Origin: Escherichia coli
GTDB lineage: Bacteria; Pseudomonadota; Gammaproteobacteria; Enterobacterales; Enterobacteriaceae
Direction: 5' to 3' (one strand)
Assembly: GCF_003018255.1 (NCBI RefSeq)
Contig: NZ_CP027440.1
Length of the DNA: 64,000 nt
The position numbers and the translations under genes were made by a program. The notes under the pieces are model-generated. The model did no database searches. It worked only from the letters and a program-made list of their open reading frames with translations, and was not told the origin of the DNA. Shown here one piece after another: positions 5,527-37,720 of this stretch. How positions within the stretch are numbered: position 1 is the first letter of the stretch; each line of letters opens with the position of its first letter.

Positions 5527-6178
5527 GCCACTAACCTGGGAAAACGCCTTCTTTGGTGTTAACAGCGCCATTGTGCGCATTAGTCCTGAAGCACCGCTCC
5601 TGACGCCAGACGCCTTAGCGCCGTGGTCACGGGTGCAGGCCAAAATTGCGGCATCAAATACGGATGAACTGGATGCCTTGCAACAGCTGGGATTCTCCCT
5701 GGTAGAAGGTGAAGTTGATTTGGCGCTACCCGTAAACAATGTCAGTGATAGTGGTGCTGTAGTGGCACAAGAGACCGATATTCCCGCATTACGTCAGTTA
5801 GCCAGCGCCGCATTTGCGCAAAGCCGTTTTCGTGCGCCGTGGTATGCGCCTGACGCCAGCGGTCGCTTTTATGCACAGTGGATTGAAAATGCCGTGCGCG
5901 GCACCTTTGATCATCAATGCCTCATTTTACGTTCGGCGTCCGGCGATATTCGTGGCTATGTCTCTTTACGGGAACTCAATGCGACAGATGCGCGAATTGG
6001 CCTGCTGGCTGGACGCGGTGCAGGTGCTGAGCTGATGCAAACAGCGCTAAACTGGGCGTATGCTCGCGGTAAAACAACTTTGCGGGTGGCGACCCAAATG
6101 GGCAACACCGCCGCGCTAAAACGATACATACAAAGTGGTGCGAATGTAGAAAGCACCGCGTACTGGTTATACAGGTGA
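5504..6178 (+). CDS. wecD: dTDP-fucosamine acetyltransferase
   Basis: 224 aa GTG-initiated ORF in the expected ECA position between rffH and wecE; GNAT-like C-terminal region. Confidence 0.8.
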
Positions 6179-6182
6179 TCAC

Positions 6183-7313
6183 ATGATTCCATTTAACGCA
6201 CCGCCGGTGGTGGGAACCGAACTCGACTATATGCAGTCGGCAATGGGTAGTGGCAAACTGTGTGGCGATGGCGGTTTTACCCGTCGCTGCCAGCAGTGGC
6301 TGGAGCAACGTTTTGGCAGCGCCAAAGTGTTACTGACGCCATCCTGCACCGCTTCGCTGGAGATGGCGGCGCTGCTGCTCGATATCCAGCCTGGCGATGA
6401 AGTGATCATGCCGAGCTACACCTTTGTCTCCACCGCCAATGCCTTTGTGCTGCGTGGCGCAAAAATCGTTTTTGTGGATGTTCGCCCGGACACCATGAAC
6501 ATCGACGAAACGCTGATTGAAGCGGCGATCACCGACAAAACGCGCGTTATCGTGCCGGTCCATTACGCGGGTGTGGCCTGCGAAATGGACACCATTATGG
6601 CGTTGGCGAAAAAGCATAATCTGTTTGTGGTGGAAGATGCTGCTCAGGGCGTGATGTCCACTTACAAAGGGCGTGCACTGGGAACCATTGGTCATATTGG
6701 CTGCTTTAGCTTCCATGAAACCAAAAACTACACGGCGGGCGGTGAAGGCGGCGCGACGCTGATTAACGATAAAGCGTTGATCGAACGAGCCGAGATCATC
6801 CGTGAAAAAGGCACAAACCGCAGCCAGTTCTTCCGTGGTCAGGTCGATAAATATACCTGGCGCGATATTGGCTCCAGCTATTTGATGTCCGATCTGCAAG
6901 CTGCGTACCTGTGGGCGCAACTGGAAGCAGCGGATCGTATCAATCAGCAACGTCTGGCGCTGTGGCAAAACTACTACGATGCGTTAGCACCTCTGGCGAA
7001 AGCCGGGCGTATCGAGCTGCCGTCGATTCCCGATGGCTGCGTGCAGAACGCGCATATGTTCTACATTAAACTGCGGGATATTGATGACCGGAGCGCGTTG
7101 ATTAACTTTCTGAAAGAAGCGGAAATCATGGCGGTGTTCCATTACATTCCGCTGCACGGTTGCCCTGCGGGGGAACGCTTTGGTGAGTTCCACGGTGAAG
7201 ATCGCTACACCACCAAAGAGAGCGAGCGCCTGCTGCGCCTGCCGCTGTTCTACAACCTGTCGCCCGTCAATCAGCGTACGGTAATTGCGACTTTGTTGAA
7301 CTACTTCTCCTGA
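6183..7313 (+). CDS. wecE: dTDP-4-amino-4,6-dideoxygalactose transaminase
   Basis: 376 aa; DegT/DnrJ/EryC1 PLP-dependent aminotransferase features (FSFHETKNYT lysine region). Confidence 0.9.
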   Translation: MIPFNAPPVVGTELDYMQSAMGSGKLCGDGGFTRRCQQWLEQRFGSAKVLLTPSCTASLEMAALLLDIQPGDEVIMPSYTFVSTANAFVLRGAKIVFVDVRPDTMNIDETLIEAAITDKTRVIVPVHYAGVACEMDTIMALAKKHNLFVVEDAAQGVMSTYKGRALGTIGHIGCFSFHETKNYTAGGEGGATLINDKALIERAEIIREKGTNRSQFFRGQVDKYTWRDIGSSYLMSDLQAAYLWAQLEAADRINQQRLALWQNYYDALAPLAKAGRIELPSIPDGCVQNAHMFYIKLRDIDDRSALINFLKEAEIMAVFHYIPLHGCPAGERFGEFHGEDRYTTKESERLLRLPLFYNLSPVNQRTVIATLLNYFS

Positions 7314-31910: not shown

Positions 31911-34073
31911 ATGGACGTTTCTTACCTGCTCGACAGCCTTAATGACAAACAGCGCGAAGCGGTGGCCGCGCCACGCAGCAACCTTCTGGTGCTGGCGGGC
32001 GCGGGCAGTGGTAAGACGCGCGTACTGGTGCATCGTATCGCCTGGCTGATGAGCGTGGAAAACTGCTCGCCATACTCGATTATGGCGGTGACGTTTACCA
32101 ACAAAGCGGCGGCGGAGATGCGTCATCGTATCGGGCAACTGATGGGCACCAGCCAGGGCGGCATGTGGGTCGGCACCTTCCACGGGCTGGCGCACCGTCT
32201 GCTGCGTGCGCACCATATGGACGCCAATCTGCCGCAGGATTTTCAGATCCTCGACAGCGAGGACCAGCTACGCCTGCTCAAACGCCTAATCAAGGCGATG
32301 AACCTCGACGAGAAGCAGTGGCCGCCGCGCCAGGCAATGTGGTACATCAACAGCCAGAAAGATGAAGGCCTGCGTCCACATCATATTCAAAGCTACGGTA
32401 ATCCGGTGGAGCAGACCTGGCAGAAGGTGTATCAGGCGTATCAGGAAGCGTGTGACCGCGCGGGCCTGGTGGACTTCGCCGAGCTGCTGCTACGTGCTCA
32501 CGAGTTGTGGCTTAACAAGCCGCATATCCTTCAGCACTATCGCGAACGGTTTACCAATATCCTGGTGGATGAATTCCAGGATACCAACAACATTCAGTAT
32601 GCGTGGATCCGCCTGCTGGCGGGCGATACCGGCAAAGTGATGATCGTTGGCGATGACGACCAGTCAATCTACGGCTGGCGTGGGGCGCAGGTCGAGAATA
32701 TTCAGCGTTTCCTCAATGATTTCCCCGGTGCTGAAACTATCCGTCTGGAGCAGAACTACCGCTCTACCAGCAATATTCTGAGCGCCGCTAACGCCCTGAT
32801 TGAAAACAATAACGGGCGTCTGGGTAAAAAACTGTGGACCGATGGCGCGGACGGTGAGCCTATTTCCCTCTATTGCGCTTTTAACGAACTCGACGAAGCG
32901 CGTTTTGTGGTTAACCGTATCAAGACCTGGCAGGACAATGGCGGGGCGCTTGCCGAGTGCGCCATTCTCTACCGCAGCAACGCCCAGTCGCGTGTACTGG
33001 AAGAAGCACTGTTGCAGGCGAGTATGCCGTACCGTATTTACGGCGGGATGCGCTTCTTCGAACGCCAGGAAATCAAAGATGCGCTCTCGTATCTGCGCCT
33101 GATTGCCAACCGTAATGACGACGCGGCGTTTGAGCGCGTGGTGAATACACCAACGCGGGGTATTGGTGACCGGACGCTGGACGTGGTACGTCAGACATCG
33201 CGCGATCGCCAGTTAACACTCTGGCAGGCATGTCGTGAACTGTTGCAGGAAAAAGCCCTCGCCGGACGTGCTGCCAGTGCCTTACAGCGGTTTATGGAAC
33301 TGATCGACGCCTTAGCGCAGGAAACTGCCGATATGCCGCTGCATGTACAGACTGACCGGGTAATTAAAGACTCCGGCCTGCGCACAATGTACGAGCAGGA
33401 GAAAGGCGAAAAAGGCCAGACGCGTATCGAAAACTTAGAGGAACTGGTAACGGCGACGCGCCAGTTCAGCTACAACGAAGAAGACGAAGATTTAATGCCG
33501 CTGCAGGCGTTCCTCTCCCATGCGGCACTGGAAGCGGGCGAGGGGCAGGCGGATACCTGGCAGGATGCGGTGCAGTTGATGACGCTACACTCGGCGAAAG
33601 GTCTGGAATTCCCGCAGGTGTTTATCGTTGGTATGGAAGAGGGCATGTTCCCAAGCCAGATGTCGCTGGATGAAGGCGGGCGTCTGGAAGAAGAACGCCG
33701 TCTGGCCTACGTTGGCGTAACCCGCGCGATGCAGAAACTGACGCTGACCTACGCGGAAACCCGCCGTCTATATGGCAAAGAGGTTTACCATCGCCCGTCG
33801 CGCTTTATCGGTGAGTTGCCGGAAGAGTGTGTGGAAGAGGTGCGCCTGCGCGCCACGGTAAGCCGCCCGGTCAGCCATCAACGGATGGGGACGCCGATGG
33901 TCGAGAACGACAGCGGCTACAAGCTCGGCCAGCGCGTACGCCACGCTAAGTTTGGTGAAGGCACCATCGTCAATATGGAAGGCAGCGGTGAGCATAGCCG
34001 TTTGCAGGTGGCGTTCCAGGGCCAGGGTATTAAATGGCTGGTGGCGGCTTACGCCCGGTTGGAGACGGTGTGA
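31911..34073 (+). CDS. uvrD: DNA helicase II
   Basis: ORF track extends to 31725, but ATG at 31911 (MDVSYLLDSLNDKQREAV) gives the expected 720 aa; Walker A GAGSGKTRV; UvrD/Rep helicase motifs. Confidence 0.9.
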   Translation: MDVSYLLDSLNDKQREAVAAPRSNLLVLAGAGSGKTRVLVHRIAWLMSVENCSPYSIMAVTFTNKAAAEMRHRIGQLMGTSQGGMWVGTFHGLAHRLLRAHHMDANLPQDFQILDSEDQLRLLKRLIKAMNLDEKQWPPRQAMWYINSQKDEGLRPHHIQSYGNPVEQTWQKVYQAYQEACDRAGLVDFAELLLRAHELWLNKPHILQHYRERFTNILVDEFQDTNNIQYAWIRLLAGDTGKVMIVGDDDQSIYGWRGAQVENIQRFLNDFPGAETIRLEQNYRSTSNILSAANALIENNNGRLGKKLWTDGADGEPISLYCAFNELDEARFVVNRIKTWQDNGGALAECAILYRSNAQSRVLEEALLQASMPYRIYGGMRFFERQEIKDALSYLRLIANRNDDAAFERVVNTPTRGIGDRTLDVVRQTSRDRQLTLWQACRELLQEKALAGRAASALQRFMELIDALAQETADMPLHVQTDRVIKDSGLRTMYEQEKGEKGQTRIENLEELVTATRQFSYNEEDEDLMPLQAFLSHAALEAGEGQADTWQDAVQLMTLHSAKGLEFPQVFIVGMEEGMFPSQMSLDEGGRLEEERRLAYVGVTRAMQKLTLTYAETRRLYGKEVYHRPSRFIGELPEECVEEVRLRATVSRPVSHQRMGTPMVENDSGYKLGQRVRHAKFGEGTIVNMEGSGEHSRLQVAFQGQGIKWLVAAYARLETV

Positions 34074-34117
34074 CGTTGCGGGATGCGGTGCGCCACACCG
34101 CATTCCGCATCAGCACC

Positions 34118-35020
34118 TTACTTAGCGCACTTCTTCACATCAATATTCCAGTCAGCACCAGACGCAACCTGATGTTTCTGCGCAAAATTATCCATATTCA
34201 GCGCCACGGAAACATTCAATAAGCTGTTCAGATACACCATCGGCTGGCCTTCCGGCACATCGCCGAAGCTTGCGACATACGGCATTTTCCCTGCGTATTT
34301 TTGCTGGGAACCTTCGGAAATGGTCACACACAACGTGTCGTTGAGTTTGATTCCTGCCTGTTTCAGCAACTCGTCGCTGATATTGCTCCAGACGTTGCCG
34401 TACTGAATATCGAGAATCGGGATATTGCCCTTCACTTCACCTTTTGTTGCTTTTGCTTTCTGATAAGAAAGTTCGACAACTTTTGCAGGAAGCTCTGGCC
34501 CCACCTGTTCGAACGTAATCGCTCCGGAAGCCAGACGCGCACCAGTGTAGGCATATACATCGCGACCATGGAAGGTATATGACTTTTCAGAACCTTTCAG
34601 GCGGTTAGCTTTTTCGTCGATTTCCCGGACGCTATCAATACCCAGAGTTTGTGCCACCAAAGTGAGCGTACCGTTATCTGGTGAAACGAAGTATTGACCG
34701 TTTTTGGTTTTCAGCACTACCGATTTACGGTCAGTGCCTACGCCCGGATCGACCACGCTAACAAACACCGAACCTTGCGGCCAGTAACTGGCAGTCTGAT
34801 ACAGGCGATAAGCGCCTTCCCAGATGTTATACGGTGGAATTTCGTGTGTTAAATCAAAGATTTTAAGATTATGGTCAACGCCGAATGCGACCCCTTTCAT
34901 CGCCGAGACGGCACCATCTTTCAGGCTAAAATCCGTTTGTAAAATCAAAGCGTTATCCGCATAAGCGGATGATGACCCCAGACAGGTTAATAAAAATAAT
35001 GTTGCGAGCGTTTTTTTCAT
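34118..35020 (-). CDS. secreted SAM hydroxide adenosyltransferase-like protein (DUF62 family, accessory)
   Basis: 300 aa; signal peptide MKKTLATLFLLTCLGSSSAYA; N-terminal LQTDFSLKDGAVSAMKGV and C-terminal ILDIQYGNVWSNI motifs resembling the DUF62 fold (fluorinase/chlorinase-related); I do not recall a gene between uvrD and yigE in K-12. Confidence 0.55.
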   Translation of the reverse strand: MKKTLATLFLLTCLGSSSAYADNALILQTDFSLKDGAVSAMKGVAFGVDHNLKIFDLTHEIPPYNIWEGAYRLYQTASYWPQGSVFVSVVDPGVGTDRKSVVLKTKNGQYFVSPDNGTLTLVAQTLGIDSVREIDEKANRLKGSEKSYTFHGRDVYAYTGARLASGAITFEQVGPELPAKVVELSYQKAKATKGEVKGNIPILDIQYGNVWSNISDELLKQAGIKLNDTLCVTISEGSQQKYAGKMPYVASFGDVPEGQPMVYLNSLLNVSVALNMDNFAQKHQVASGADWNIDVKKCAK

Positions 35021-35102
35021 TTTTGTTTCCCTTCATTTATCTGATGATTTTCCAGCTGTGTAGCCAGCCCCAGTTTGTCTGGCCTCCTCGAGTGTACAAT
35101 GT

Positions 35103-35867
35103 TTAACCTTTCTGCTCGACGGAAATCATGGTGACAAAAGGATAGCGTTGCCACGGGATTGCCTCGCCTTTCATATACATATGTGAAATTGTGCCATCAA
35201 GATAAAGCAGCTGCCCAACGTTCAGTTTCGCTTTGGCATAACAGGCAAAATCATAAAAATTTGTCGCCTGCTGGCTCAACAAAAACACGGCGTTCCCATG
35301 TTTATTAATCCCAACACCGTTACGAATTTTACGTGAGGCGACGTTGGGATGAATACGCGGATTAATTACACCGTTTTCCATCAACAATGGCCCTGACTGC
35401 ACCGCAAACTGAATCTCTTTACTGGTTTTAAAGGCATCCAGACGAACGATGCCGACTTTATCTCCCGCGACATAAAACACTCCGCCAGGACGAATAAAGA
35501 AATTCCCTTCACCTGAAGCGAGATTTAACGCCACCTTCTGCTGACCGTTTTCGATGTACAAACCGAGCGGCGCATAGCTTTCATCATAGATGCCGCCGTT
35601 CATCGCCATCTGCACCTGACCCTGACTATTAATATCCGCCAGCAGAGCATGTAACGTTCCCCACGCTTCGCCATTGGCTTTTTGCCAGTACATTTTCACC
35701 CGCTCTGTTTGAGGATTAACGGTATACGCCTGTACGGTCAGCGTCGGATCTGAGGGTGCGCAATCATCAGCGGCAACAGCAAACAAGGGAAGTAAGGTGA
35801 GGGTGAGAAAAATCCGTTTGAGATTCAAGGTGATCATTCCTTTACCAATGAATAGCCGATGCGCCAT
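35103..35867 (-). CDS. yigE: DUF2233 protein YigE
   Basis: 254 aa with signal peptide; synteny upstream of corA. Confidence 0.75.
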   Translation of the reverse strand: MAHRLFIGKGMITLNLKRIFLTLTLLPLFAVAADDCAPSDPTLTVQAYTVNPQTERVKMYWQKANGEAWGTLHALLADINSQGQVQMAMNGGIYDESYAPLGLYIENGQQKVALNLASGEGNFFIRPGGVFYVAGDKVGIVRLDAFKTSKEIQFAVQSGPLLMENGVINPRIHPNVASRKIRNGVGINKHGNAVFLLSQQATNFYDFACYAKAKLNVGQLLYLDGTISHMYMKGEAIPWQRYPFVTMISVEQKG

Positions 35868-37222: not shown

Positions 37223-37720
37223 TTATTGCTGAAAATTGTCTTTTTCAAAGTCATGCGGGTTGAACACTCGCTCTATCTTATTTTCCTGGGTTAGTTGATA
37301 CTCATTGTTATCAGCAATAAAAAAATGAGTATTACGGTAAGGATATTCATTAATAACCATTAAATAGTTTTTTACGATGCAATTATCATTGCTCTTAATC
37401 GTCGGGAAACAGTAGAGATCTTCATACGGCCCTTCGATATATTTTTTATAGTCAGTGAAGCCATTACCGATATCAATAACATACCAGGTATGCCAACTAC
37501 CTTCTGGTAGGGGATGTTGATTTTTAATTTCATTCTGACGCTTCAGATACCAATTTATTTTATCGCTGTCAGTCCATGGCAGATGATCAACGACCAGAAA
37601 GACTGAATTGCCAGCATCAGAGTATGTATACAAAATCTGTACAGGACGCAATGTCCATAAATTATAGATGCAGCATAGAAGAAATAAACATAATATAATT
37701 TTCTGGAGTTTGCTTTTCAT
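37223..37720 (-). CDS. DUF943-like small membrane protein (accessory, possible immunity-like partner)
   Basis: 165 aa, AT-rich codon usage; N-terminal TM helix (IILCLFLLCCIYNLW); start overlaps upstream gene stop (ATGA-type coupling at 37717-37720). Confidence 0.45.
   Translation of the reverse strand: MKSKLQKIILCLFLLCCIYNLWTLRPVQILYTYSDAGNSVFLVVDHLPWTDSDKINWYLKRQNEIKNQHPLPEGSWHTWYVIDIGNGFTDYKKYIEGPYEDLYCFPTIKSNDNCIVKNYLMVINEYPYRNTHFFIADNNEYQLTQENKIERVFNPHDFEKDNFQQ

Follow-up and report, generated by a model that had tools for sequence, protein, structure and literature searches.

We describe an Escherichia coli gene for a predicted exported member of the DUF62 family (S-adenosylmethionine (SAM) hydroxide adenosyltransferase-like proteins), which lies between uvrD and yigE in the 64,000-nucleotide stretch of contig NZ_CP027440.1 analysed here (the window). 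The reading towards which we lean, with modest confidence, is that the product is a Sec-exported, soluble periplasmic hydrolase that would split SAM into adenosine and L-methionine for scavenging, and that the gene was later passed to Helicobacter pylori. An initial annotation of the window had reported a secreted DUF62 protein at this position. That observation is confirmed and its interpretation is partly supported. The most unusual fact, which it missed, is an H. pylori orthologue (HP0709) that is 90% identical.

The interval from the uvrD stop (34073) to the yigE stop (35103) is exactly 34074-35102. Its sole long open reading frame (ORF) has 300 codons:

34118-35020, minus strand: coding sequence of the predicted exported DUF62 / SAM hydroxide adenosyltransferase-family protein, 300 amino acids plus stop (ORF list, Pfam, RefSeq WP_000751622.1, AlphaFold2, Foldseek)

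An identical gene is found in E. coli strain 104, a chicken isolate from China that is 100% identical to the window in this region, and RefSeq names its product (WP_000751622.1) 'SAM hydrolase/SAM-dependent halogenase family protein'.

Family, fold and active site

The protein is a member of the DUF62 / SAM_HAT superfamily. Its two Pfam domains are SAM_HAT_N (PF01887; residues 26-174, E=4.9e-53) and SAM_HAT_C (PF20257; residues 198-291, E=2.6e-18), and their presence bears out the earlier claim of a 300-residue protein with both the N- and the C-terminal family motifs. In a PDB sequence search the top match is 2ZBU, a DUF62 protein of Thermotoga maritima (E=9e-44), followed by the chlorinases ClA1 and SalL, and then by PH0463, MJ1651 and the fluorinases. 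The AlphaFold2 model, a monomer built on 35 homologues, has a mean predicted local distance difference test score (pLDDT) of 92.3 and a predicted template-modelling (TM) score (pTM) of 0.86, and contains the two-domain DUF62 fold, an alpha/beta/alpha N-domain with an antiparallel beta C-domain. Foldseek matched the model to 2zbu, 6ryz, 1wu8 and 1rqp with target-normalised TM values of 0.78-0.89 (E 1e-24 to 2e-32), and with values of 0.85-0.89 to 2zbu, SalL and PH0463. The fold is shared with PH0463 (1WU8, 2WR8), MJ1651 (2F4N), T. maritima 2ZBU and Salinispora StDUF62 (TM 0.85-0.88), as are both Pfam domains, an identical catalytic triad and the substrate-binding residues, at 31-34% identity in the Foldseek alignments.

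The hydrolase branch of the family is marked by a water-activating Asp-Arg-His triad (D68-R75-H127 in PH0463), whereas the halogenases lack this triad and use T80/S158 (FlA) or Y70/G131 (SalL) instead (PMC4859513, PMC10491745). In the HMMER alignment, D91, R98 and H151 of the E. coli protein fall exactly on the three PH0463 residues; SalL has Tyr70 opposite Asp91 and Tyr130 opposite His151. Conservation was counted in a clade alignment of 84 sequences, which was also used for the cysteine counts below:

34748-34750, minus strand: Asp91 codon, predicted catalytic triad (PH0463 Asp68; SalL Tyr70), conserved in 84/84 (alignments)
34727-34729, minus strand: Arg98 codon, predicted catalytic triad (PH0463 Arg75), conserved in 84/84 (alignments)
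34568-34570, minus strand: His151 codon, predicted catalytic triad (PH0463 His127; SalL Tyr130), conserved in 79/84 (alignments)

By its sequence, the presence of the triad assigns the protein to the hydrolase rather than the halogenase type. The substrate-contact residues D30, N116, F150, D204 and N209 are also kept, with D30 and N209 being the equivalents of the substrate-binding D16 and N215 of FlA. The motifs PxNG (P114-D-N116-G) and (I/L)DxxYGN (L203-D204-I-Q-Y-G-N209) are retained with minor variation: PxNGL has Thr in the place of its Leu, and in IDxxFGN the Ile is Leu and the Phe is Tyr. Comparison of 76 exported with 25 leaderless sequences revealed that the pocket is not rewired, the sole clade-specific change in a binding motif being Phe to Tyr at position 207. 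Conserved residues of the exported clade's own are F46, G47, Y186, P201 and Y207 (in the place of the Phe of IDxxFGN).

A SAM-dependent halogenase (a chlorinase or fluorinase making 5'-halo-5'-deoxyadenosine) would have the same superfamily membership and fold, and would share the bimolecular nucleophilic substitution (SN2) at C5' of SAM that is predicted here. The protein is 30% identical to SalL with a TM of ~0.88, and HP0709 has been called 'adenosyl-chloride synthase / salL' (PMC6090961, PMC6212823). However, we rejected this reading, and regard it as extremely improbable, because the hydrolase triad is present. SalL and FlA lack it, possess halide-binding residues, are cytoplasmic and are encoded in biosynthetic clusters (PMC4859513). 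In addition, the halide-site residues are missing here (SalL Tyr70 is Asp91, and FlA Thr80/Ser158 are unmatched), the fluorinase model TIGR04507 scores 83.6 against a cut-off of 400, and there are no downstream halometabolite genes in the neighbourhoods of the 80 homologous loci described below. The mention of fluorinases and chlorinases in the initial annotation is not relevant to a protein with this triad.

The database names of many E. coli, Shigella and H. pylori copies are 'acetolactate synthase' (NCBI/UniRef) and 'adenosyl-chloride synthase / salL' (UniProt-derived). Judged by sequence features, both names are unsupported, and they have already entered papers (PMC6090961, PMC6212823).

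Predicted export, cysteine pair and the exported clade

The N-terminus has the anatomy of a Sec signal peptide, with an n-region MKK, a 12-residue h-region (TLATLFLLTCLG; 7-15 residues are usual) and a c-region SSSAYA followed by Asp22, so that Ala occupies both -3 and -1. The assignment is heuristic, by n/h/c-region anatomy, and divides the protein as follows:

34958-35020, minus strand: Sec signal peptide, residues 1-21 (MKKTLATLFLLTCLGSSSAYA), predicted cleavage after Ala21 (n/h/c anatomy, AXA motif)
34121-34957, minus strand: predicted mature protein, residues 22-300, 279 amino acids, ~30.4 kDa, pI ~5.9 (leader anatomy, coordinates checked)

In every pairwise alignment the homologous domain starts at query residue 24-28, facing residues 2-5 of the cytoplasmic proteins, which indicates that the 22 extra residues are an add-on. 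The pLDDT is ~53 for residues 1-20, compared with >90 for the domain. Met1 is the only Met upstream of the essential Asp30. The clear signal peptide of the initial annotation is thus recovered by this anatomy, the domain start at about residue 24 and the low pLDDT. From these features we infer export, and the protein appears to be sent out of the cytoplasm. A lipoprotein (signal peptidase II) reading was rejected: L-L-T-C13 has Thr at -1, at odds with the lipobox [LVI][ASTVI][GAS]C, and Cys13 is not conserved, the residue being His in H. acinonychis and Gln in H. pylori SA213A.

Alternatively, the N-terminal extension may remain uncleaved, with the protein being either a cytoplasmic (R,S)-SAM 'repair' hydrolase made from an internal start or an inner-membrane-anchored protein. 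An in-frame TTG at codon 25 (34946-34948) would yield a leaderless MILQTDF... resembling the N-termini of cytoplasmic homologues. This codon is also TTG in H. pylori, and the heuristic nature of the signal-peptide assignment leaves some room for such a product. However, there is no Shine-Dalgarno sequence ahead of TTG25, and the codon is CTG in a related enterobacterium (contig L087, below), whereas the good Shine-Dalgarno sequence ahead of ATG1 is conserved in both H. pylori and L087. Leaders with an AXA-type c-region are kept in 79/80 relatives across phyla, and the perfectly covarying cysteine pair described below suits an oxidising compartment. We consider an uncleaved extension quite unlikely.

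Predicted export is a property of a whole clade. A species-level scan (one genome per species, GTDB; best 80 loci kept) revealed a basic and hydrophobic leader in 79/80 loci, with five lipobox-like; the N-terminus of the 80th is leader-like by eye. These loci span about ten phyla. They include Escherichia, H. pylori, Edwardsiella, Thorsellia, two Pasteurellaceae, and metagenome-assembled genomes of Neisseriales and Burkholderiales. The whole genus Aeromonas carries a homologue at 72-76% identity, and homologues at 55-66% identity are found in Chitinophaga, Dyadobacter and other Bacteroidota, Verrucomicrobiota, Synergistota, Tissierellia, Fusobacteriota, Thermotogota, Planctomycetota and Desulfobacterales. 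The leader sequence varies among homologues while its hydrophobic and charged design is kept, as expected of genuine signal peptides. We also searched 1.84 billion proteins and took the 150 best 50%-identity cluster representatives. Among the 82 that are full-length, at least 42 are of the exported type (Sec or lipoprotein leader) and 23 are leaderless.

The initial annotation had regarded an exported member of this family as unexpected. This holds for characterised proteins, as all 16 PDB sequence matches are leaderless and our literature search for a DUF62 protein or SAM hydrolase with a signal peptide or in the periplasm found nothing relevant. It does not hold for the nearest homologues, among which leaders are common. 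The literature searched, that on HP0709 (jhp0648, O25413) included, yielded no study of the function or evolution of the exported clade. The exported DUF62 proteins are a large, uncharacterised branch of a known enzyme family.

The mature protein contains two cysteines, which we propose are paired:

34328-34330, minus strand: Cys231 codon, proposed disulfide partner (opens strand 229-236 in the model)
34127-34129, minus strand: Cys298 codon, C-terminal KKC motif, proposed disulfide partner (directly after the last strand, 288-297, in the model)

Mature proteins of the proteobacterial subclade have exactly two cysteines, Cys231 and Cys298, which occur together in 38/38 sequences and are both missing in the other 46/84. 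In the remaining exported members the mature part contains 0-1 Cys, mostly none; three of the four leaderless representatives have 2-4. This is the pattern expected when a protein folds in an oxidising compartment. The positions in the model are compatible with an inter-strand bond, and Cys231-Cys298 is probably a disulfide. In its Sec leader, its C-terminal extension ending in KKC, its covarying cysteine pair and its predicted periplasmic location, the E. coli protein is unlike the DUF62 hydrolases listed above, and their proposed role, the removal of (R,S)-SAM in the cytoplasm, cannot apply outside that compartment.

Escherichia, Helicobacter and the local gene context

The gene is a single-copy chromosomal gene in 2413/5426 complete E. 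coli genomes, with alleles 94.7-100% identical in nucleotide sequence. Carriers include O157:H7, O55:H7, enterotoxigenic E. coli, sequence type 131 (ST131)-type strains, and BL21 with its derivative C43(DE3). At every E. coli locus inspected, it lies between uvrD and yigE. The gene is absent from K-12: in MG1655 uvrD (ending at 4000145) and yigE (starting at 4000292) are separated by 146 bp that resemble a repetitive extragenic palindromic (REP) element and contain no DUF62 gene, as the initial annotation had supposed. Its proposed comparison of the interval across E. coli thus revealed a gene that is not universal. We looked for a deletion scar in K-12 and rejected the idea, as the REP-like spacer contains no gene remnant.

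In Escherichia sp. MOD1-EC7003, a second species-level lineage, the order corA-yigE-DUF62 gene-uvrD is collinear at ~95% nucleotide identity. An Enterobacteriaceae contig (L087; Logan SRR28530750 contig 70) has the orthologue divergent beside corA, without yigE, at 80.8% nucleotide identity. L087, in which corA is 88.5% and pldA-rarD 77% identical to E. coli at the nucleotide level, represents another genus of the family. On this sequence comparison, the gene looks like a long-standing, vertically inherited occupant of the corA-uvrD interval with repeated losses, one of them in K-12, and not like a recent island.

In E. coli HS-02 (NZ_CP172818.1, 3896683-3897540) the annotated copy carries a frameshift and an internal stop and has no more than 80.9% identity, and yigF of that genome is likewise a pseudogene. 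This degenerate copy may be an assembly error rather than true decay.

Outside Escherichia the best matches come from H. pylori and H. acinonychis, in hundreds of records with 89-90% amino acid identity over 300 residues, leader included. The H. pylori gene lies in the order uvrA, hopE-type outer-membrane protein (OMP) gene, rsmH, small ORF HP0708, DUF62 gene, homA, HD hydrolase gene, rpoN. This context identifies it as HP0709 / jhp0648, in agreement with published primer names (PMC6083042) and with UniProt O25413 (PMC8756444). HP0709 shares with the E. coli protein the length of 300 residues, the leader, the triad, the cysteine pair and the ribosome-binding region. Unlike the E. coli gene, it belongs to another phylum, lies in an unrelated context, can be flanked by a direct repeat of ~210 bp (below) and has a GC content of 43% (in a 38% GC locus) versus 47% (in the 51% GC window). 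The two genes are 84.5% identical at the nucleotide level and 66% at third positions. Sensitive BLASTN showed that homology extends no further than 20 nt upstream and 6 nt downstream of the ORF, and detected no uvrD, yigE or REP remnants beside the H. pylori gene. No other Campylobacterota occur among the 80 best loci of the species-level scan.

In a neighbour-joining tree with 300 bootstraps, the L087 enterobacterium, E. coli and H. pylori are monophyletic in 299/300 replicates, with the topology (L087,(E. coli,H. pylori)) and E. coli and H. pylori as sisters in 265/300. The trio plus Edwardsiella was recovered in 269/300, and the group is nested in the Gammaproteobacteria. The synonymous divergence (dS) between E. 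coli and H. pylori is 0.89 (84.5% nucleotide identity) and that between E. coli and L087 is 1.46 (80.8%), which puts E. coli nearer to H. pylori than to this enterobacterium. Nonsynonymous to synonymous ratios (dN/dS) of 0.03-0.06 in every comparison indicate strong purifying selection on the protein in both hosts. As HP0709 is nested inside the enterobacterial clade, the most parsimonious reading of these sequences is that the ancestor of H. pylori and H. acinonychis acquired the gene long ago from the Escherichia lineage. The acquisition is not recent, although dS is inflated by the AT bias of H. pylori and its fast evolution. No paper describing an Escherichia-Helicobacter transfer was found in the literature.

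No plasmid or phage vector was found in the plasmid and phage collections. Candidate plasmid carriers were rejected, as the only close matches were chromosomes mis-filed as plasmids. The sole close phage match, Helicobacter phage Pt11444_1, was rejected as a carrier because it is a prophage record with the bacterial flank uvrA...HP0709-homA. In this 'complete phage genome' (PQ159899.1), uvrA, the OMP gene, mraW, HP0708, HP0709 and homA stand beside phage structural genes, suggesting that the prophage was delimited too generously. Consistent with this, the adjoining HD-hydrolase/homA site is the second most frequent prophage integration hotspot of H. pylori (PMC11321410). In H. pylori CP079344 the gene is bracketed by a direct repeat of ~210 bp (5708-5919 and 6909-7129), consisting of three segments that are 71-81% identical at a spacing of ~1200 bp. 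The downstream copy corresponds to the stretch that precedes homA, and HP0709 thus appears to follow a duplicate of the hom upstream/promoter region.

Within the window, the gene is flanked by the following features:

35021-35102, minus strand: yigE-DUF62 spacer, 82 bp, containing the Shine-Dalgarno sequence AAGGGA (promoter scan, coordinates checked)
35103-35867, minus strand: yigE, DUF2233 / phosphodiester glycosidase family, with its own leader; same-strand upstream neighbour (ORF list, RefSeq)
34077-34109, no strand: GC-rich hairpin with a 14-bp stem between the convergent uvrD and DUF62 genes (RNA fold -34.2 kcal/mol, z=-6.6)
31911-34073, plus strand: uvrD, convergent downstream neighbour (ORF list, RefSeq)

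The Shine-Dalgarno sequence is at 35028-35033, 7 nt 5' of the ATG, and the final ~25 nt of the spacer are homologous in H. pylori and L087. A consensus scan found no convincing sigma-70 promoter in the 82 bp, so co-transcription with yigE is possible. The yigE gene is context and not a conserved partner, as it is missing beside the orthologue in L087 and H. pylori. Clustering of ORFs within ±4.5 kb of the 80 loci by BLASTP revealed no conserved neighbour outside within-genus synteny, and thus gives no operon-based clue to function. The DUF62 gene is a stand-alone unit without conserved partners. A defence-system reading was rejected, as PADLOC and defence-family searches gave no match for the DUF62 protein, yigE or the DUF943 neighbour.

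The hairpin is probably a bidirectional terminator or a REP-like element; it has no T-run and was hence missed by the terminator scan. The mechanically called uvrD ORF begins at TTG 31725 (782 amino acids), whereas the annotated, conserved start is ATG 31911 (720 amino acids, MDVSYLLD...). Directly after corA, where K-12 has yigF and yigG, the window contains a low-GC islet (31-35%; 37223-~38890) with a DUF943 gene (37223-37720, minus strand), a DUF3289 pseudogene, an IS1A copy and a YPO3983-family pseudogene.

Predicted role in SAM scavenging

We propose that the precursor would be exported by Sec and its 21-residue leader cut after Ala-Tyr-Ala (Ala21). The mature protein of ~30 kDa would fold in the periplasm, where the Dsb system could form a stabilising Cys231-Cys298 disulfide, and would presumably assemble into a homotrimer with active sites at the subunit interfaces, by analogy with its relatives. 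Asp91-Arg98-His151 would activate water for SN2 attack on C5' of SAM, or of a sulfonium compound very similar to it, for instance (R,S)-SAM or decarboxylated SAM, and adenosine and L-methionine would be released. SAM from lysed cells, food or host tissue would in this way be split outside the cytoplasm into two importable nutrients. A copy from the Escherichia lineage would have entered the ancestor of H. pylori and H. acinonychis, become HP0709 and been kept by strong purifying selection.

No SAM importer is known in E. coli, whereas nucleosides and methionine are readily imported, and we infer on this basis that scavenging is the most likely role. UshA, CpdB and AphA, the periplasmic nucleotide-scavenging hydrolases of E. 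coli, offer an analogy in that a charged compound that cannot be imported is split in the periplasm into a nucleoside and a second product. They are not homologous, and cleave phosphoesters rather than a sulfonium C-S bond. The SAMase of phage T3 type also degrades SAM, the activity predicted here, but has an unrelated fold, is a lyase giving methylthioadenosine and homoserine lactone, and is a cytoplasmic anti-restriction protein (PMC7877911). Scavenging fits well with the physiology of H. pylori, in which the de novo synthesis of purines (PMC13328217) and the synthesis of methionine (PMC6247508) are missing. In a biofilm transcriptome of strain SS1, 'salL' was up 2.87-fold and the methionine permease metI up 2.18-fold (PMC6212823). 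A scavenging role also matches the ecology of the wider clade. Free-living bacteria of soil and water (Aeromonas, Chitinophaga, Verrucomicrobia, Synergistetes) make up most of it, and degraders of organic matter with many secreted hydrolases predominate.

Several points weigh against this proposal. The gene is dispensable, being missing from 56% of complete E. coli genomes, and a TTG25 start could in principle give a leaderless cytoplasmic isoform. Localisation, disulfide, activity and substrate are predictions for every exported member. Those cytoplasmic DUF62 enzymes that have been characterised act slowly, with a preference for the non-biological (R,S)-SAM epimer, and there is dispute over their physiological role (PMC12120602, bioRxiv 10.1101/2025.08.29.672840). 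The protein scores far below the cut-offs of the NCBIfam (R)-SAM hydrolase equivalog models (131.6 bits against 350 for NF058624; 116.2 against 470 for NF053629), and the same function as that of the characterised (R)-SAM hydrolases is therefore not established by sequence. Finally, the proposal presupposes free extracellular SAM in the gut or stomach.

Some of these points would also suit an exported enzyme that acts outside the cytoplasm on a different 5'-substituted adenosine or sulfonium compound, perhaps a natural-product antimetabolite, decarboxylated SAM, or an adenosyl conjugate derived from the host or microbiota, in detoxification or signalling instead of nutrition. SAM is mainly intracellular, the physiological substrate is debated even for the cytoplasmic enzymes (PMC12120602), and both the sub-threshold equivalog scores and the exported clade's own conserved residues (F46, G47, Y186, P201 and Y207) are compatible with a different substrate. 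On the other hand, all known adenosine- and methionine-binding residues and the triad are conserved, and no biosynthetic or transporter neighbour points to a specialised substrate. We judge this alternative to be somewhat unlikely.

A host-directed function would account for the retention of the gene in H. pylori and for a signal in a gastric-cancer genome-wide association study (GWAS): an exported or outer-membrane vesicle (OMV)-borne enzyme might make adenosine, which is anti-inflammatory via A2A receptors, or deplete mucosal SAM. HP0709 is listed in an H. pylori OMV proteome (PMC8756444), its non-synonymous single-nucleotide polymorphism D49N is associated with gastric cancer (PMC6090961), and the gene is common to two gut or stomach colonisers. 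However, ribosomal proteins are listed in OMVs too, which also makes the HP0709 listing weak evidence for export, and a GWAS association establishes no mechanism. The clade consists mostly of free-living soil and water bacteria, so that its ancestral role would not be host-directed. This explanation appears very unlikely to us.

If the SAM-scavenging reading is true, it would be the first clear physiological role for a branch of DUF62. A consistently exported clade cannot carry out cytoplasmic (R,S)-SAM 'repair', suggesting a second biology for the family in which extracellular SAM, or a related sulfonium nucleoside, serves as a nutrient or signal. More tentatively, exported DUF62 proteins could represent a widespread, unrecognised route of extracellular SAM salvage, of which H. 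pylori captured and fixed the Escherichia version as a nutritional adaptation. The E. coli gene is a tractable model, as natural plus and minus backgrounds exist (BL21/C43, O157 and ST131-type strains versus K-12). H. pylori is known mainly for within-species exchange, and HP0709, which has no assigned function and yet appears in a gastric-cancer GWAS and a biofilm transcriptome, is a clean case of inter-phylum gene capture by a pathogen. The chemistry is probably ordinary; the novelty lies in an uncharacterised, apparently exported clade of a known enzyme family and, in addition, in this apparently undescribed transfer from Escherichia to Helicobacter.

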